Source of the DNA: an uncultured Candidatus Saccharibacteria bacterium
GTDB lineage: Bacteria; Patescibacteriota; Minisyncoccia; Phycocordibacterales; UBA12088
DNA: 64,000 bases
Assembly: GCA_964567265.1 (NCBI GenBank)
Contig: CAZMLK010000001.1
Span: 15,832 to 79,831 of the forward strand
Direction of reading: 5' to 3'
Below are positions 46,841 through 59,648 of the stretch, one piece after another (the stretch's first letter is position 1; every line of letters begins with the position of its first letter). A model generated the notes under the pieces. It was not told where the DNA came from, searched no databases, and saw only the letters and a list, made by a program, of their open reading frames with translations. The position numbers and the translations under genes are program-made.

Positions 46841-48817
46841 ATGTATACAAAAGTCCATGCGAAGGTCGTTGAAAACCCTATAAAAAGCGCAATCCTCGGT
46901 TTGCTTTCGGTCGCCGTCTTCTCATACCTCATTCTGTCGAACCAGGCCGCGCAGACGGAGGCATCGCTGACGCCCTTCCAGACAACACTTGCGCAAGGGT
47001 TGGCGCTCCCGACCGCGATGGAGTTCGCGCCGGACGGAAGGCTGTTTATCTCTCAGAAGAGCGGCAAGCTCCGCGTCTTCAAAGATGGTGCGCTCCTTGC
47101 CACGCCAGCACTCACGATTCCAGTGACAAGTACGAGCGAGCGAGGGCTCCTGGGAATCGCATTCAGTCCGACATTCGCTCAGGATCAATATATTTACCTC
47201 TACTACACGCGCGCCGGCACGGTCGTCAAGAACCGAGTAAGCCGCTTTACCTTTGATCCTTCGAATCCTGACGTTCTCATGCCGGGGAGCGAATTCGTGA
47301 TCGTTGACGATATCGCCTCGGATGCCGGCAACCACAACGGAGGCGCGATCCATTTCGGCCCAGATGGCAAGCTGTACATCTCTATCGGAGACGGAGGCCG
47401 GTACCATACGACTTCGCAAGAGCTCAATACGCTTTCCGGAAAAATCCTTCGAGTGAATGCCGACGGCACTATCCCGGAAGACAATCCCTTCGTAGGTACG
47501 CCGGGCGCTCGGCCCGAGATCTGGGCGATGGGTCTCCGGAATCCATTCACCTTCGCGTTCGAGCCGGGGACTGGGAAGATGTACATCAATGACGTCGGCC
47601 AGCAGACATGGGAGGAGGTGAATCTCGGTGCTCCTGGTGCGAACTATGGCTGGCCAACGTGTGAGGGTTTCTGCACCAGCACTTCGACCCCATTCCAGAA
47701 TCCCGTATTCGTATATGGTCATGATCTGAAATCGGGCGGCGCGGCAATTACGGGTGGCGCGTTCGTTACAGGAACGAATTTCCCCTCTGAAAAATCAGGA
47801 AGCTATTTCTATGGCGACTACGTGCTCGGCGGCATCCGCGAGTATTCAGCTGGCGGCGTGCAGTCAATGTTCTTCCCGTCCGCGCATGGTCCGAGCGACG
47901 TGAAATTCGGTCCGGACGGGATGCTGTACTGGATTTCGGTGCTCGACGGAACATTGAATCGGATCGCGTACCCGAGCGGAACCGTGAATAACGCGCCGGT
48001 CGCGGTCGCGAATGGAACGCCCCTCTCCGGAGTCACGCCGCTTACAGTCGCTTTCAGCGCCGCATCAAGTACCGATGCTGAAAATGACCCGCTCACGTAT
48101 TCTTGGGATTTCGGAGATGGATCCGCGCTGGGAACCGGTGTCACATCAAGCCACACCTACTCGGTACCTGGTGTCTATATCGCCACGCTTACGGCAAATG
48201 ACGGCACCAATGCATCCGTGCCCGCGACCGTCAGTGTTTCTGCAGGAAAACTCCCGAGCGCAAAGATTCTGAAACCCGTGAGCGGCGCGCGCTACCGCGC
48301 ATTCGACAAGATTACCTATACGGGACAGGCGACCGACACCGTGACCAACCTGCCGCTTCCGGATTCGGCATACAGCTGGACCATCGTGTTCCATCACGAT
48401 ACCCACACGCACCCGTTCTTGGGACCGATTACTGGAACAACGACCGGCACCTTCGCAATCCCGGCGACAGGAGAACAATCCCCAAACACGTGGTACAGTA
48501 TCCACCTGACCGCGACGAACTCCTCAGGCCTCACCAAGGAGGTCATTCGCGAAATAAAACCGCGGACAGTTCTGATTTACCTGAAGACGGTTCCCGCAGG
48601 GCTCGCGCTCACACTCGACGGACAGCCGTCCTCAACGCCGAGCTCCTTCTACAGCGTGCAGAAGTTCAAGCATACGCTCCTTGCACCTTCGACGCAGACG
48701 ATCAACGGCAAGACCTACAAGTTCAAGTCATGGTCTGACGGCACAGCCCGGTCACACACGTTCCAGGCTCCGACCAGCAACGCCACGTACACCGCAACCT
48801 ATGTCCTGGTGCCATAG
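46841..48817 (+). CDS. PQQ-dependent sugar (glucose/sorbosone) dehydrogenase-like beta-propeller protein with PKD domain
   Basis: TM anchor. MEFAPDGRLFISQKSGKLRV, ERGLLGIAF and HNGGAIHFGPDGKLYISIGDGG motifs of the soluble GSDH family. PKD motif WDFGDG...HTY...Y.ATLTANDG. Confidence 0.75.
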   Translation: MYTKVHAKVVENPIKSAILGLLSVAVFSYLILSNQAAQTEASLTPFQTTLAQGLALPTAMEFAPDGRLFISQKSGKLRVFKDGALLATPALTIPVTSTSERGLLGIAFSPTFAQDQYIYLYYTRAGTVVKNRVSRFTFDPSNPDVLMPGSEFVIVDDIASDAGNHNGGAIHFGPDGKLYISIGDGGRYHTTSQELNTLSGKILRVNADGTIPEDNPFVGTPGARPEIWAMGLRNPFTFAFEPGTGKMYINDVGQQTWEEVNLGAPGANYGWPTCEGFCTSTSTPFQNPVFVYGHDLKSGGAAITGGAFVTGTNFPSEKSGSYFYGDYVLGGIREYSAGGVQSMFFPSAHGPSDVKFGPDGMLYWISVLDGTLNRIAYPSGTVNNAPVAVANGTPLSGVTPLTVAFSAASSTDAENDPLTYSWDFGDGSALGTGVTSSHTYSVPGVYIATLTANDGTNASVPATVSVSAGKLPSAKILKPVSGARYRAFDKITYTGQATDTVTNLPLPDSAYSWTIVFHHDTHTHPFLGPITGTTTGTFAIPATGEQSPNTWYSIHLTATNSSGLTKEVIREIKPRTVLIYLKTVPAGLALTLDGQPSSTPSSFYSVQKFKHTLLAPSTQTINGKTYKFKSWSDGTARSHTFQAPTSNATYTATYVLVP

Positions 48818-49941: not shown

Positions 49942-50034
49942 CCGGCTACTATGCCAAATGCTAGATGCGGTTTTGATGAAAGAGAAAAGGCCTCACGCAT
50001 GCGCGAGGCCTTGCGACCGACCAGCCTGTGTCGA

Positions 50035-50346
50035 TCAGGATTGAGTTTGGGACTTGACGCAAGCAGCGACAAGCTTGGCCACGTCGTCCATTATTTTAGA
50101 TCGGAACAGGGGATCATTGAGGAGGGCTTCGGGTAGAATCATCACGTTTTGTTCTGATGCAAAAGTTCTAACCTGCCCAGGGTCATTTGCCCATACAGAA
50201 CCAACTGTAAGCGCATCGTGAACCTCCCCGAGGGTGGTGATTGTCATGCAACTGGGGGAACTATCTACCGTCTGCGCTAGGCCGGTGCCAATTTGAGTGG
50301 CGGTAAGGGCGACGGCCCCAGCAAAACGCCGCATCCAAGGCTTCAT
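50035..50346 (-). CDS. Small secreted Cys-containing protein, paralog A (103 aa)
   Basis: MKPWMRRFAGAVALTATQIGTGLAQTVDSSPSCMTITT...LVAACVKSQTQS. Signal peptide and two conserved Cys. GGAG ribosome-binding site 8 nt upstream. The track ORF 50035..50673 reads through the upstream paralog. Confidence 0.55.
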   Translation of the reverse strand: MKPWMRRFAGAVALTATQIGTGLAQTVDSSPSCMTITTLGEVHDALTVGSVWANDPGQVRTFASEQNVMILPEALLNDPLFRSKIMDDVAKLVAACVKSQTQS

Positions 50347-50384
50347 CTTTACTTCTCCAAAGTATTTCAAGACGATATGCCAGG

Positions 50385-50420
50385 AAATACAATACATATT
50401 ATATCTGTATATGTCAATAA
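50385..50420 (-). promoter_or_regulatory. Sigma-70-type promoter for paralog A
   Basis: Minus strand reads TTGACA (50417..50412), a 17-nt spacer, then TATTGT (50394..50389) preceded by TG (extended -10). Confidence 0.5.
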
Positions 50421-50506
50421 TTCGGTAGGTAGGGGGAAATAGGAAAGGCCTCGCGTATGCGCGAGGCCTTGTGACCGACAGGGTGATCGGTCTCAGTGAC
50501 AAGTGG

Positions 50507-50812
50507 TCAGGGTTGGGACTGAATCTGGCCGCAGAGCGCGACAAGCTTGAGGGCTTCGGCTCTGAATTCGGTCCTGGCCTTCTCATCTCCGAGGATGCTC
50601 TCGCTGAGGACAAGGACATCGCTACGGGACAGGTAGCTAAGGGTGCGGTCGAGACTATTCGTACCCCCAACATTGACTATGGCATCAATATCCGATGGCG
50701 TTACCATCTTCACGCAGCTAGGGGCTGAGGCGTCGGCCTGCATTACCATCCCACCAGCAAAACCGGCCGCAGTTGCCCCTACCAGGGAAAGTACTGCCAT
50801 CCAAGGCTTCAT
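50507..50812 (-). CDS. Small secreted Cys-containing protein, paralog B (102 aa)
   Basis: MKPWMAVLSLVGATAAGFAGGMVMQADASAPSCVKMVT...LVALCGQIQSQP. Same architecture as paralog A. Confidence 0.55.
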   Translation of the reverse strand: MKPWMAVLSLVGATAAGFAGGMVMQADASAPSCVKMVTPSDIDAIVNVGGTNSLDRTLSYLSRSDVLVLSESILGDEKARTEFRAEALKLVALCGQIQSQP

Positions 50813-50850
50813 CTTCACTTCTCCGAAGTGTTTCAGGGCGATATGCCAGG

Positions 50851-50886
50851 AAACATAATACATATTATATATTTATATGTCAAGTG
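50851..50886 (-). promoter_or_regulatory. Sigma-70-type promoter for paralog B
   Basis: Minus strand reads TTGACA (50883..50878), a 17-nt spacer, then TATTAT (50860..50855). GGAG ribosome-binding site upstream of the ATG. Confidence 0.5.
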
Positions 50887-51182
50887 ATTGTGATGGGGAA
50901 TTGAGCTCAGTATTAGCCCTTGCAACGCCCATGCACCTCGGGGTTTTGTGAAGGCCCCTTCATTAAGGGGATTGGCCACCAGTCACTAAGGGGGGATTGT
51001 CCCACGGTCACTAATTCACTTCGCTCATAAGTGCCGCTGGATGGATGAGTCACGGTGAAAATGATTTGGGGAATCATTTTCACCTAAGCCGCAAGCGGCG
51101 ATTTCGCCTCGGTGAATGACGTCAAATCCTGTTTTGTGAATCAGGGGATGTAAAGAAAGTAATATCAATGACGGATTTTTGA

Positions 51183-51251: not shown

Positions 51252-51602
51252 CTAGTGGTGCAAGTCGTAATTGCCGATGTCCGTCCACGAAGCCTCCGTA
51301 GGTAGACCTCGTTTGCGTGCCTCGCGCTTCCGGTCCAGCTCGTTGTCGTAATTGCCGATGTCCGTCCACGAAGCCTCCGTAGGTAGACCTCGTTTGCGTG
51401 CCTCGCGCTTCCGGTCCAGCTCGTTGTCGTAATTGGCGATGTCCGTCCATCGGGCCGTTTCCGGCAAGTTGCGAGCCGCAGCGCTGCAGGTTCGACTGGA
51501 CTCGTCGTCAGTGATTCCGGAGCATTCGACCTGGAAATAGCTGGTCGCACCCACGACCACGAGGATGAAGCTCGTGAGTAGTCCGATGAGAATTCGGGGC
51601 AT
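51252..51602 (-). CDS. Small secreted repeat protein (116 aa) containing an in-frame 27-aa tandem repeat
   Basis: N-terminal hydrophobic segment MPRILIGLLTSFILVVVGATSY. NYDNELDRKREARKRGLPTEASWTDIG is repeated twice, plus a degenerate third copy. Confidence 0.5.
   Translation of the reverse strand: MPRILIGLLTSFILVVVGATSYFQVECSGITDDESSRTCSAAARNLPETARWTDIANYDNELDRKREARKRGLPTEASWTDIGNYDNELDRKREARKRGLPTEASWTDIGNYDLHH
51264..51452. repeat. Perfect 81-bp tandem duplication (2 identical copies + diverged third copy)
   Basis: gtcgtaattgccgatgtccgtccacgaagcctccgtaggtagacctcgtttgcgtgcctcgcgcttccggtccagctcgtt occurs at 51264 and again at 51345 with no mismatches. A third copy starts at 51426 and diverges after ~25 bp. 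Confidence 0.85.
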
Positions 51603-51889
51603 GTCAGTTACTCAATACTGTGGACACTGTGATGATTGTAGCATGAATAAATACTTTGTCAATACCCACAATCTCCAGAGGAGATTGTCTTCCCGCCATA
51701 GATTCGCTTTGCTCGTACGCGCCTTGTGACCCCGACTCGAACCGAGGTTCTTCCTTAGAGGACGGTACACCTTGCAGACATATTTAGTTAAGGGATCAGT
51801 CACGAGTCACTAAGGATTGTTCGTCGCAGGCTCCTCAAACCCTAAGTGCTCGCGACCCCGTCTCAAAACTAAAAATGTGTGGACAGCAT

Positions 51890-51950: not shown

Positions 51951-52175
51951 TCACCTATCTGTGGGGTAGCCATCCATGAAGCGAGGCAGTTCAGATGATC
52001 CCGCTGGAGCTATGTAGTTGTAGCACCAGCACTGGATATCCCCTCCATCATCTGGCTGTATGTGGAGCTCATCGCGATGCTTATCCCAGGAGGTGACGAT
52101 GCCGGTTGTGGAGATGAGTTGCACACGTTTCCCCACGCATTCTTTGCGAGGCGGAACACATTTTGTTGAACACAT
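51951..52175 (-). CDS. Small Cys-rich protein (74 aa)
   Basis: MCSTKCVPPRKECVGKRVQ...DIQCWCYNY has six Cys. Start at internal ATG 52175, preceded by a TTGACA-N17-TAAGGT promoter (52244..52216). Confidence 0.4.
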   Translation of the reverse strand: MCSTKCVPPRKECVGKRVQLISTTGIVTSWDKHRDELHIQPDDGGDIQCWCYNYIAPAGSSELPRFMDGYPTDR

Positions 52176-52288
52176 GATTACACCTGTAACCTGTAGTTGA
52201 TACGAAACTAAGTGGACCTTAGCATTTTTTATATGTATTGTCAATAGCACGAAACCGCCCGAACGGCGGTTTCGTCATTGTAAATGTG

Positions 52289-52678
52289 TGGAGATGGGGG
52301 GATCGAACCCCCGTCCGAACTGGGGCGGGATCGCGATCTACGAAGCGTAGTCACCTTTGTTCCTTTAGGCCGTGCTGGTCGAAGGTGACCAAATGCAGCA
52401 CGTGCCGAGCTTCCTTAATTTAGGTTCCGTGCCAAAGCGCTCATGGAACCGATTTCAGTTTTTATGACACCGTCATCACCCTACTGAACGACGGATGATG
52501 GGATGGCTTATGCAGTTGCGTAAGCGAACGCGAAGTCATTCATCTGGAATGGAGACAAAACTGACTTTGCGCGTGCGAGAGTGTTCTTTGCACTTGTTGT
52601 TTCCAGATTTTTAGGAAGGTCTGGACTTCCGCTTCGCCCGACAATCCGTAAGACCAATCCGTCGAAACTGACATCCCC
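52289..52678 (-). ncRNA. ssrA: tmRNA (ssrA), ~390 nt, directly downstream of smpB
   Basis: 5' end GGGGATGTCAGTTTCGACGGATTGG (compare E. coli GGGGCUGAUUCUGGAUUCGACGGGAUUUG). 3' end TTCGGACGGGGGTTCGATCCCCCCATCTCCA, a tRNA-like T-arm plus an acceptor strand complementary to the 5' GGGGATG. An internal ORF ends ...NDFAFAYATA-TAA, a plausible degradation tag. Confidence 0.8.
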
Positions 52679-52742
52679 GCTTCCTGCATTCAGGAGAATG
52701 CAGGAAGCGGGAACCACCTACGGTTTCGATGACGTCGTACGG

Positions 52743-53189
52743 CTAGCGCGCTTTCATCTCTCGGTCCAGATCGCGTTTCGTATCCCTGGTCTTCAGAGTC
52801 TCGCGCTTGTCGAATTTCTTCTTGCCGCGCACGATGGCAATCCGGGCCTTGATGTAGCGGCCCTTACTATACATTGAAATTGGGACGATTGTCAACCCTT
52901 TGGCGCCCTCTGCACCCAACACCTTTTCGAGCTCTTTCTTCGAGAGAAGGAGTCGCCGGGTGCGGTCAGGTTCATAGCTTGTCGGGGCATTCTTCGGCTG
53001 GTGGGCAGGAATCGAGGCGCCAATCAGATAGGCCTCGTTCCCGCGGATGATGACCCGGGCGCCCTCGAGCGTCCCATGTCCGCCGCGGACCGACTTCACC
53101 TCGAAGCCGAACAGCTCGATACCCGCCTCGAATTCCTCAAGGATTTCATAGTTGAAATGGGCTTTTCGGTTCTGGACGAAGGTCGTCAT
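52743..53189 (-). CDS. smpB: SsrA-binding protein SmpB
   Basis: NRKAHFNYEILEEFEAGIELFGFEVKS...GKKKFDKRETLKTRDTKR, a full-length match to the SmpB family. Confidence 0.9.
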   Translation of the reverse strand: MTTFVQNRKAHFNYEILEEFEAGIELFGFEVKSVRGGHGTLEGARVIIRGNEAYLIGASIPAHQPKNAPTSYEPDRTRRLLLSKKELEKVLGAEGAKGLTIVPISMYSKGRYIKARIAIVRGKKKFDKRETLKTRDTKRDLDREMKAR

Positions 53190-53285
53190 GGCTCTACCTT
53201 AGCATGCCGGGGAGGACGCCGCATAAGGGTTTTTCGGTCTCCTCGAGACCCTGTTTCCTCCATGATTTGCTATACTATTCCCATT

Positions 53286-54320
53286 ATGGATACATATACA
53301 CTCAAGAAAACGATAGACAAATTAATGGAAATGCCGAAAGGAATCCTTGCGGCCGACGAGAGCAACCGTTCGATGGATAAGCGGCTCGATGCGGAAGGGA
53401 TAGAGACGAGTGTCGAGATGCGTCGGGATTACCGCGAGCTCCTCCTCGGGGTCGATAAGCTCGAAGACTCGATCAGCGGCGTCATTTTCTATGACGAGAC
53501 GCTTAGGCAGAATCATTCGAACGGCACGCCGTTCCCGAAGTTTCTTGATATGAAGGGAATCGTGCCCGGCATCAAGGTTGATACCGGTACCACCAATCTT
53601 CCATTCTTCCCTGAGGAGAAGATCACCGAAGGTCTTGACGGGCTCGCGCTCCGACTCGTCGACTACAAGCATCTCGGCGCGGAGTTCGCGAAGTGGCGGG
53701 CCGTCATCACGATCGGGAACGGCATCCCGACGGATACGTGCATTCTTGCGAACGCGACGGTGCTCGCGCGCTATGCGGCCCTCTGCCAGGAGGCCGATAT
53801 CGTCCCGATGGTCGAGCCGGAAGTATTGCTTGATGGAAAACACAACATCCAGATGACGGAGGAAACACTTTCCCGCACGCTTGATGTCATCTTCCAGGAG
53901 CTCAGGCGCTACAAGGTCTCGCTGCCGCATACGATCCTCAAGACGGCCATGGTACTCCCTGGGAAAGACTGCAGCGATCAGGCAACCGACGAGGATATCG
54001 CCGAGCGCACCGCGCGCGTCCTCAAGGAACATGTACCTGCTGATATTGGTGGCGTCGTCTTCCTTTCAGGCGGACAGGGCCCGAAAGAATCGACTGCACG
54101 TCTCCAGGCGATTATGAAAAAAGGTCCCTTCGCGTGGCCGCTCAGCTTCTCGTATTCACGCGCGGTGCAGATGCCCGCCCTCCATATATGGAAGGGGAAA
54201 GCTTCGAATGTCGAGGCCGCACGCGTGGCATTCATGGACCGTGTGCAGATGAACGTGCTCGCCCGAAAAGGCGAATACGATGCCGCGAAGGATGCCTACG
54301 GAACCGAGCAAGAGGAATGA
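53286..54320 (+). CDS. fba: Fructose-bisphosphate aldolase, class I
   Basis: GILAADESNRSMDKRL (class I FBA N-terminal motif GILAADES). IVPMVEPEVLLDG contains the Schiff-base lysine region. Start at ATG 53286, alternative 53262. Confidence 0.8.
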   Translation: MDTYTLKKTIDKLMEMPKGILAADESNRSMDKRLDAEGIETSVEMRRDYRELLLGVDKLEDSISGVIFYDETLRQNHSNGTPFPKFLDMKGIVPGIKVDTGTTNLPFFPEEKITEGLDGLALRLVDYKHLGAEFAKWRAVITIGNGIPTDTCILANATVLARYAALCQEADIVPMVEPEVLLDGKHNIQMTEETLSRTLDVIFQELRRYKVSLPHTILKTAMVLPGKDCSDQATDEDIAERTARVLKEHVPADIGGVVFLSGGQGPKESTARLQAIMKKGPFAWPLSFSYSRAVQMPALHIWKGKASNVEAARVAFMDRVQMNVLARKGEYDAAKDAYGTEQEE

Positions 54321-58421: not shown

Positions 58422-59648
58422 ATGCAACTCACGCGCCGCTCGTTATTCCTCACGTGCATCCTTGTGGTCGTCGTGGCGGGAGTCGTCTGGGCCGCGCCGC
58501 TGGTCATGAGGACGCTTACGGGCGTCCTGCCGCTCTTGTCGCGCGCACATATTCCGCTCCTGCCCGGTACCGAGAATGCGGCCATTATCGTCCCTGCGCT
58601 CACGATTCCCGCCCCGTTCGCTATCCAGGTCTTCGCGAAGGATCTCGGCGATCCGCGCGTCATGGTACGAGATCCTGCCGGAAAGCTCGTGGTAAGCCTC
58701 CCAACCGAGGGCAAGGTCGTGGCGCTTCCCGATGTGAATGCCGACGGCGTCGCGGATAATGTTATCGTGGTCGCGGAGGGACTCAAGAAGCCGCACGGCA
58801 TCGCGTTCCACGACGGGAAGATCTACATAGCGGAAACCGACCAGGTCGCGGCCTATGACTATGACGAAGAATCGTTCCGCGCGACCGGAAAGCAGAAGAT
58901 CGTCGATCTCCCGACCGACGGCTACAATCAGCATTTCACCCGCACGCTCCATGTCCTCAAAGAAGCGAGTGGAGACCGGCTTCTCGTATCGGTCGGCTCT
59001 TCCTGCAATGTCTGCCATGAGAATGATCCAAAGCGCGCCTCGATACTCTTGATGAATTTTGACGGCACGAACGTGACCACCTTCGCAAAAGGCCTCCGCA
59101 ACTCCGTATTCATGGCGACGAATCCTTCGACGGGCGCGCTCTGGGCCACGGAGATGGGCCGCGATCTCCTCGGGGATGACATTCCTCCAGACGAAATCAA
59201 TATCATCAAGAAGGGAAAGGACTACGGCTGGCCGATCTGCTACGGCAAGAATATCCATGACACGGCATTCGACAAGAACACCTACATCCGTGCTCCCTGT
59301 ACCGAACCCTACGAGCAGCCCTCTGTAATCGATATCCCCGCGCATTCCGCGCCGCTCGGGCTCGCATTCGTTCCCGAGGAGGGCTGGCCGGCTGCATATC
59401 AATTCAACCTCTTCGTCGCGTACCATGGTTCGTGGAATCGGAGCGAGCCGACCGGGTACAAGGTCGTGCGCTATAAGTTCGCTGAGGACGGCACGTTCCT
59501 TGGCGTCGAGGATTTCCTGACGGGATTTTTCAAGGATGATGAGGTGCTCGGCCGGCCGGCGGATATACTCATCGAGCCGAATGGTATGATGTTCGTATCA
59601 GATGACCGCGCAGGCATGATTTATCAAATCACGCTCAGCTCGAAATAA
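58422..59648 (+). CDS. PQQ-dependent sugar dehydrogenase (sorbosone dehydrogenase family)
   Basis: TM anchor. KPHGIAFHDGKIYIAETDQV and GWPICYG motifs of the GSDH/SGL beta-propeller family. Confidence 0.7.
   Translation: MQLTRRSLFLTCILVVVVAGVVWAAPLVMRTLTGVLPLLSRAHIPLLPGTENAAIIVPALTIPAPFAIQVFAKDLGDPRVMVRDPAGKLVVSLPTEGKVVALPDVNADGVADNVIVVAEGLKKPHGIAFHDGKIYIAETDQVAAYDYDEESFRATGKQKIVDLPTDGYNQHFTRTLHVLKEASGDRLLVSVGSSCNVCHENDPKRASILLMNFDGTNVTTFAKGLRNSVFMATNPSTGALWATEMGRDLLGDDIPPDEINIIKKGKDYGWPICYGKNIHDTAFDKNTYIRAPCTEPYEQPSVIDIPAHSAPLGLAFVPEEGWPAAYQFNLFVAYHGSWNRSEPTGYKVVRYKFAEDGTFLGVEDFLTGFFKDDEVLGRPADILIEPNGMMFVSDDRAGMIYQITLSSK

Follow-up and report, generated by a model that had tools for sequence, protein, structure and literature searches.

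What kind of history leaves two neighbouring small genes almost identical in promoter and terminator and largely dissimilar in between, and what might the encoded proteins do? This question is raised by genes A and B, which lie in tandem on the minus strand of a stretch of 64,000 nucleotides (nt) from an uncultured Candidatus Saccharibacteria bacterium (contig CAZMLK010000001.1, positions 15,832 to 79,831; hereafter the window, in whose own coordinates all positions are given). Gene A (50035-50346; 103 amino acids (aa) plus stop) and gene B (50507-50812; 101 aa plus stop) each encode a small protein with two conserved cysteines that is predicted to be exported. The explanation preferred here, to which we give a probability of about 0.5, is that both units are cassettes for fast-evolving, Sec-exported, acidic two-cysteine proteins, the conserved ends of which would allow gain, loss and replacement of the divergent cores.

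According to consensus and terminator scans, A and B are two autonomous single-gene units. Each comprises a predicted promoter of the sigma-70 type, GGAG as ribosome-binding site, a coding sequence of about 100 codons and a predicted intrinsic terminator; separate promoters and terminators had been proposed in an earlier interpretation made from the letters alone (the sequence-only reading). The promoter of A (50389-50417, minus strand like all elements of both units) consists of TTGACA, a 17-nt spacer and TATTGT with 10 of 12 consensus matches and falls inside an 86-nt block common to unit B, and that of B (50855-50883) consists of TTGACA, a 17-nt spacer and TATTAT with 11 of 12 matches. GGAG was read from the sequence at 50355-50358 in A and at the equivalent position 50821-50824 in B, in both cases ending 8 nt 5' of the ATG. 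The terminator of A (49987-50012) has an 11-bp stem, a 4-nt loop and a T-rich tail, that of B (50445-50470) an 11-bp GC-rich stem and a T-rich tail, and since only 27 nt lie between the terminator of B and the promoter of A, the genes are regarded as separate units. The position of both genes and the length of A had been given correctly in the sequence-only reading, whereas B is one residue shorter than the 102 aa assigned to it. Gene callers start B at the upstream ATG 50863 (118 aa, protein P0002) and proceed likewise in the relative described below (116 aa); because this ATG falls within the -10 region and is missing from A, MKPWM is the consistent start of B. Protein P0001 of the protein collection is identical to A.

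Compared with each other, the two units are best read as a mosaic and not as a simple recent duplicate. The conserved 5' blocks, reaching from the -35 hexamer to codon 5 (50332-50417 in A, 50798-50883 in B), are identical at 77 of 86 positions (90%) and lie 466 nt apart, and the conserved 3' blocks with terminator and flanks (49978-50021 and 50436-50479) are identical at 39 of 44 positions (89%) and lie 458 nt apart. Neither block has a further copy in the 64 kb, where 0 chance matches are expected. Within the 3' blocks the terminator stems agree at 24 of 26 positions, though constraint would be expected on base-pairing and not on sequence. Past codon 5 only 128 of 288 nt (44%) of the coding cores are identical and synonymous divergence (dS) is saturated. 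In a sliding window, identity falls from 83-90% to 37-53% in one step, shows a bump at the KLVAxC codons and reaches 90% at the terminator, and the contrast between core and ends is significant for both the 5' block (Fisher p 1e-14) and the 3' block (2e-8). The earlier view that a complete unit of about 455 bp had been duplicated with near-identical parts therefore applies to the ends, but not to the coding cores. It is unusual for promoter spacers and for the precise sequence of terminator stems to stay constant while silent sites randomise, and because of this the ends and the cores probably have separate histories, that of the cores being much the deeper; gene conversion of the ends or import or replacement of the cores may have been involved, beyond purifying selection alone.

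Other explanations for the 5' region were considered and rejected. For a conserved RNA structure in the 5' untranslated region (UTR) neither a significant fold (z-scores -1.4, -0.4 and +0.1) nor an Rfam match in the region was obtained. On inspection, a sigma-54 promoter in the TGGCAT...TTGA stretch proved to be off by one in spacing and to be devoid of the GC dinucleotide, and a palindromic operator in the promoter spacer is perfect in the relative contig L001 and not conserved in A or B.

A search with the DUF1232 gene adjacent to A, aimed at further strains, yielded the contig L083, once more the relative contig L001, and two non-syntenic contigs; an exact look-up of the neighbouring LamG protein gave no match. 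L001 is a contig of 8.4 kb that shows synteny with the window, with about 85% identity between the nucleotide sequences, and carries a single B-type gene (protein P0003) at the locus. Its 5' block matches that of B at 77 of 86 positions. Promoter, leader, signal peptide and SPSCVK segment of this gene are 80-97% identical to B and the C-terminal 35 codons mostly 87-97%, whereas about 26 codons in the centre are essentially unalignable (23 of 78 nt identical), with a length difference of two codons and two extra cysteines in L001. Taken together, the ends are identical at 185 of 219 positions, against 23 of 78 in the centre (p 1e-18). In the conserved ends nonsynonymous divergence (dN) is 0.03-0.06 at a dS of about 0.25, the dS of neighbouring genes being higher (0.5-0.85), and this excess of dS over dN indicates that the gene is translated and subject to purifying selection. 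The reading frame is intact in all three family members, the lengths of which differ by multiples of three. A diversity-generating retroelement target was rejected as the origin of the variable centre: the window and L001 contain no second copy of any part of the A or B coding cores, no reverse-transcriptase domain was found in the open reading frames (ORFs) tested between 38 and 64 kb, which are the scope of all statements on missing neighbouring genes below, and the variable regions differ in length and at all four bases.

The second contig, L083, of 1.65 kb and from another sample, is 99.4% identical to the window and lacks unit A (458 bp). It leads from the last 20 codons of B into a terminator with a B-type left arm and an A-type right arm and on to DUF1232, the switch lying inside the 15-nt stretch CAAGGCCTCGCGCAT common to both terminators, so that the crossover point falls in the terminator of B and its conserved 3' block. 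An assembly error is an unlikely source of this join, because a shared stretch of 15 nt is too short for an assembler with k=31. Unit A is missing here from a near-identical strain, as would be expected after recombination between the terminator copies or, alternatively, in a strain that represents the state before A was gained. Since L001, too, has a single gene of the B type, B is considered the ancestral copy, orthologous to the gene of L001, and A a strain-variable extra. The composition of A fits this assignment: its GC content at third codon positions (0.53) is the lowest among the genes compared (0.67-0.78 being typical), and so is its codon-adaptation value.

At the protein level A and B proved to be paralogues, as had been supposed (BLASTP, 31 of 102 positions or 30% identical; E 6e-13). 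Alignment also bore out the previously noted MKPWM start, the S-x-P-S-C motif (C33) and the two conserved cysteines, the second of which (C96) stands in K-L-V-A-x-C followed by Q-x-Q; of the C-terminal motif noted earlier only the last S of 'Q.QS' is not conserved. With P0003 included, the family signature reads MK(P/H)WM, S-x-P-S-C and K-L-V-A-x-C-x-x-x-Q-x-Q over about 100 residues. The N-termini, which the sequence-only reading had called signal peptides, are signal-peptide-like by hydrophobicity, clearly so in B and more weakly in A. Read heuristically, they comprise a charged start MK(P/H)WM (with RR in A), a hydrophobic stretch and then small residues; the maximal Kyte-Doolittle hydropathy over nine residues is 2.26 in B, 2.50 in the L001 protein and 1.88 in A, the values of 2.5-2.8 in neighbouring secreted proteins being comparable; B and the L001 protein equal these neighbours in hydrophobicity, whereas A is weaker. 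Candidate cleavage sites lie between GLA and Q in A and between MQA and D in B, and the mature proteins are acidic (isoelectric point (pI) 4.5-4.7) with 7.6-8.5 kDa. We infer from these traits that A and B are exported via Sec, the RR pair making the Tat route a possible alternative for A. A disulfide between Cys33 and Cys96 probably ties together the ends of a small alpha/beta domain. AlphaFold2, run on three-sequence alignments, gave a predicted local distance difference test (pLDDT) value of 50.5 for full-length A and, for mature B, a pLDDT of 64 and a predicted template modelling score of 0.44; the models of A and B concur on the order strand-helix-helix-strand-short helix-long helix.

Three familiar classes of exported protein were examined and rejected. 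A bacterial lipoprotein is contradicted by the missing lipobox, since in all three members the first cysteine is preceded by S-P-S, and the hydrophobic core stops 7-9 residues before this point, a charged D intervening. A type IV pilin or pseudopilin would carry a G-F/M-T-L-I-E motif, which inspection of the three N-termini did not reveal. A class II bacteriocin or pheromone precursor would have a double-glycine leader, and GG occurs in B only (A has GTGLA, the L001 protein GR).

Searches for relatives outside the locus concur with the earlier statement that no family can be recognised. In Pfam, searched at E up to 1, the sole match of A was noise (ArfA at 11 bits, under the cut-off), B matched no profile, and no lysozyme inhibitor such as Ivy, MliC or PliC was hit; NCBIfam, PHROGs and PADLOC returned no match for A or B and only noise below the cut-off for the L001 protein. 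A sequence-profile search of the PDB yielded nothing below E = 1, and the same holds for Foldseek searches of the models against PDB and BFVD. A word-indexed search of a collection of 5.8 billion protein clusters and an exhaustive HMMER search of 1.84 billion representatives found family members only. No match was obtained in GTDB genomes, JGI metagenomes and IMG/VR by peptide patterns or by DNA patterns of the 5'UTR and start region, tblastn against phage and plasmid collections gave nothing save one match at E 0.2, which is noise, and tblastn against 80 Parcubacteria smpB-ssrA loci revealed no relatives of A or B. All searches combined, metagenomic ones included, recovered exactly three members, A, B and P0003, and no housekeeping family emerged from profile, sequence or fold searches. 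A and B belong to a fast-evolving orphan family that is restricted to one narrow lineage of Patescibacteria-like organisms.

How such units might evolve can be outlined as follows. The near-identical ends would serve as handles for homologous recombination, and a crossover between the two terminator copies accounts for the strain without unit A. The divergent cores may be exchanged, or retained as old alleles, under diversifying or frequency-dependent selection, and the proteins would bind an extracytoplasmic partner that drives the variation, be it a component of the host-cell surface, a phage, or an enzyme of a competitor or host. A role in extracellular binding or inhibition is suggested on these grounds; the sequence-only reading had considered bacteriocin- or immunity-like, lysozyme-inhibitor-like and host-interaction factors. 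Among known systems, the likenesses to which are here and below drawn from general knowledge of the mycoplasma, streptococcal and Bacteroidales loci, the vsp/vlp/vsa genes of mycoplasmas come close in several respects: they, too, are tandem paralogues of a reduced-genome, host-dependent bacterium, each is conserved upstream and over the first part of its coding sequence and divergent in its exported body, and their copy number shifts by recombination between the conserved parts. Unlike these genes, A and B have no lipobox and no internal tandem repeats, they share the first five codons only and not the whole signal peptide, and the analysis revealed neither a phase-variable promoter tract nor an invertible element or recombinase.

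Several points weigh against this explanation. The inferences on selection and recombination draw on three family sequences from about four samples, and the one-copy strain is known from the single 1.65-kb contig. Export was judged by heuristics, with a weak hydrophobic core in A, the disulfide was deduced from two conserved cysteines only, and the structure models are of low confidence. The identities of the 5' block are star-like (A-B 77/86, B-L001 77/86, A-L001 74/86) and are no proof of concerted evolution; purifying selection on regulatory DNA could in part stand behind the near-identical ends. A linked gene for a functional partner was not found in the ORFs tested.

Patescibacteria commonly encode small secreted proteins of the orphan type. 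In one genome 24 small secreted proteins have been counted (PMC6851277). A and B could be ordinary old paralogues of this sort, that is, the drifted products of an ancient tandem duplication of a lineage-specific envelope protein, with unit ends that stayed alike through functional constraint alone, without any exchange of cassettes or special selection. We regard this as improbable, although of the alternatives it survives best. It agrees with the extent of conservation, which spans exactly the functional elements from the -35 hexamer to about 10 nt past the terminator stem, and with the divergence of the A and B flanks, which is as large as the divergence of B from its orthologue in L001, the relative with 85% identity. 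However, spacer, unstructured leader and exact stem sequence would not normally remain about 90% identical while synonymous sites saturate, and the abrupt change from conserved to unalignable sequence within the coding region of B and its L001 orthologue, the polymorphism of unit A between strains 99.4% identical and the atypical codon usage of A speak against mere age as well.

A narrower proposal concerns the partner. A and B might be exported inhibitor or immunity proteins directed against cell-wall- or membrane-targeting lysozymes, amidases or proteases of hosts or competitors, with extra copies widening the protection as in orphan immunity-gene arrays; the binding role suggested above would thereby take one particular form. 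The proteins are small, acidic (pI 4.5-4.7), presumably exported and provided with two conserved cysteines, so that size, charge and disulfide profile resemble what is generally known of periplasmic immunity proteins and lysozyme inhibitors; furthermore, the copies are tandem, strain-variable and each under its own promoter, the centre of the protein evolves fast, and envelope or secreted proteins are encoded nearby (LamG-like, GSDH-PKD, polysaccharide deacetylase). Nevertheless the proposal is unlikely. No profile of Ivy, MliC, PliC or of any immunity or defence protein matched, Foldseek found no similar fold, and no toxin gene or recombinase lies in the ORFs tested. Moreover, a producer without outer membrane would not keep a freely secreted protein, and lipobox or anchor motif are missing from A and B. 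With the lysozyme inhibitors Ivy and MliC/PliC they have in common that these are small exported proteins with a conserved disulfide, which is predicted for A and B, and they differ by the absence of profile matches (E up to 1), of a fold match and of the defining loop motifs. The orphan immunity arrays of Bacteroidales (acquired interbacterial defence clusters) are alike in their strain-variable runs of small exported proteins, repeated intergenic sequences and hotspot beside a small RNA gene, but here no recombinase, toxin homologue or immunity match in PADLOC or Pfam was found and there are two members only.

It is less probable still, and in our view quite unlikely, that A and B are secreted antimicrobial or signalling proteins, such as Sec-dependent bacteriocin-like toxins or pheromone precursors, of which allelic types are maintained. 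Small exported proteins with a predicted disulfide would suit this role, conserved flanks around divergent allelic cores are generally known from pherotype and bacteriocin loci, and an array of direct repeats in front of promoter B could bind a regulator, as at bacteriocin promoters. The comC/blp loci of streptococci are comparable in having conserved flanks, deeply divergent allelic cores and a small exported product, and their mosaic patterns imply recombination and long-lived alleles. However, a double-glycine leader is lacking (GG stands in B, not in A or the L001 protein), the mature proteins are acidic instead of cationic, and no dedicated exporter of the ATP-binding cassette (ABC) type, immunity gene, histidine kinase or response regulator was detected among the ORFs tested. 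The folded domain of 75-79 residues exceeds typical peptide pheromones, the product being an acidic domain of about 8 kDa and not a short cationic peptide, and there is no sequence similarity to the streptococcal proteins.

That the ORFs are chance frames, frequent as frames of about 100 codons are in DNA of 56% GC, and that the real elements are repeated non-coding blocks such as a small RNA or a repeat element is very improbable, for although no homologues were found outside the lineage, three sequences share frame, start context, cysteine positions and motifs at about 45-50% nucleotide identity, the conserved segments have a dN much lower than dS, each ORF is flanked by promoter, ribosome-binding site and terminator in the correct arrangement, and neither an Rfam match nor a stable leader structure was obtained.

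The surroundings of the two units are variable as well. The gene for transfer-messenger RNA (tmRNA), ssrA (52286-52678, minus strand; ARAGORN; Rfam 114 bits), lies about 1.5 kb upstream of B and 3' of smpB (52743-53189; Pfam SmpB E 1e-45), the product of which is 57-66% identical to SmpB of many Parcubacteria/Paceibacterota metagenome-assembled genomes; the organism very probably belongs to the Patescibacteria. The tRNA-like integration site postulated in the sequence-only reading corresponds to this ssrA gene; it does not adjoin B, however, and neither an integrase nor a duplicated ssrA 3' end accompanies it. Between ssrA and B the window contains about 1.1 kb that is absent from L001 and comprises two further units. 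ORF74 (51951-52175, minus strand; 74 aa from ATG, MCSTKCVPPRKEC...CWC) is rich in cysteine, adjoins ssrA and has a promoter-like site and a terminator; it has no Pfam match. The ORF116 unit (51252-51602, minus strand) encodes 116 aa, hydrophobic at the N-terminus, contains perfect tandem repeats of 81 nt and is furnished with a TTGACA-16-TACAAT promoter and a terminator of its own. Its repeats (51264-51449, minus strand) consist of two perfect 81-nt copies and a 24-nt start of a third, which encode 27-residue repeats LPTEASWTDIGNYDNELDRKREARKRG; the identical Logan contig breaks off within the repeat.

Upstream of promoter B, direct repeats of about 22 nt (CTTAGTGACynGTGrCynATCCCC) form an array at 50967-51060 (minus strand), which is kept in L001 (396-490). 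Two full copies and one half copy stand there, another at 51791-51813 (minus strand), where the ORF116 unit ends towards ssrA, and L001 has three. The octamer TTAGTGAC occurs within the 64 kb only in this array and at 51806, and three times at the same place in L001. These repeats may be candidate binding sites of a regulator or sites of recombination. At about 51055-51083 (minus strand) a perfect hairpin of 29 nt, GTGAAAATGATT-CCCCA-AATCATTTTCAC, takes the place of the left half of one repeat copy in comparison with L001 and looks like a tiny palindromic insertion. A 16-nt insertion found only in the 3'UTR of B (50493-50507, plus strand) contains an inverted copy of the TTAGTGAC-type motif with two mismatches (TCAGTGACAAGTGGT); as about 1.35 chance matches of this kind are expected, it is probably meaningless.

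An island integrated at ssrA, which the variable DNA just 3' of the tmRNA gene would recall, was rejected. Integrase, reverse-transcriptase and other recombinase domains were absent from the ORFs tested, no direct repeat of the ssrA 3' end of at least 14 nt was found between 49.5 and 52.8 kb, the copy in L001 is inverted, and the variable part, unlike that of such islands, is composed of separate promoter-to-terminator units. L001 has a second, inverted copy of the tmRNA gene's 3' end immediately past the terminator (241-258 and 308-325), giving a long palindrome around the hairpin; no such inverted copy exists in the window. The region 3' of ssrA therefore presents itself as a variable hotspot of small promoter-to-terminator units and not as a classical integrated island. 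A rough survey of 42 other Parcubacteria loci showed heterogeneous content after ssrA, but is too crude for any claim. Between the smpB stop and ssrA a perfect 16-nt inverted repeat (52676-52711), the 3' arm of which overlaps the first tmRNA bases (GGG), could be the smpB terminator or a processing stem.

On the other side, 3' of A, follow the DUF1232 membrane protein, a LamG-like secreted protein and a secreted GSDH-PKD protein. Within 12 kb two proteins of the GSDH type (glucose/sorbosone dehydrogenase beta-propeller) are encoded (46841-48817 and 58422-59648, both plus strand), one of them fused to PKD, and the region is altogether rich in secreted or envelope proteins, namely GSDH-type and LamG-like proteins, a polysaccharide deacetylase with a CBM domain and a GDSL lipase. 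A 439-aa ORF (53001-54320, plus strand) overlaps smpB on the opposite strand; from 53271 onward its translation matches class I fructose-bisphosphate aldolase (Pfam E 4e-112), so that the real start is internal.

The cassette explanation of A and B could be extended to the whole region 3' of ssrA, which would then be a recombinase-independent array of complete promoter-to-terminator modules for small exported proteins, gained, lost and provided with new cores via conserved ends, with the 22-nt CTTAGTGAC...ATCCCC repeats perhaps also used in the exchange. We put this forward as a speculative and unlikely step. If true, an obligate episymbiont would possess, at the level of its population, a repertoire of hypervariable ligands, secreted or on the surface, which would serve in host recognition or in evasion of phages and host defences.

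For the present the locus is best classed as representing a protein family that is new and very narrow but familiar in kind, namely that of small secreted proteins which vary between strains of a host-dependent bacterium. It is one among many orphan small secreted proteins in such genomes, not surprising in itself and no pointer to a new molecular mechanism. Patescibacteria spend their lives attached to other microbes. Little is known of the ways in which they recognise hosts or resist attack, and exported proteins that evolve fast and vary between strains are obvious candidates for these contacts. With a family of three members, conserved unit ends, a hypervariable centre and a documented presence and absence of a unit, the A/B locus offers a compact, well-delimited example, and it would make a tractable marker for following how strains of this lineage diversify, should expression and export be confirmed.

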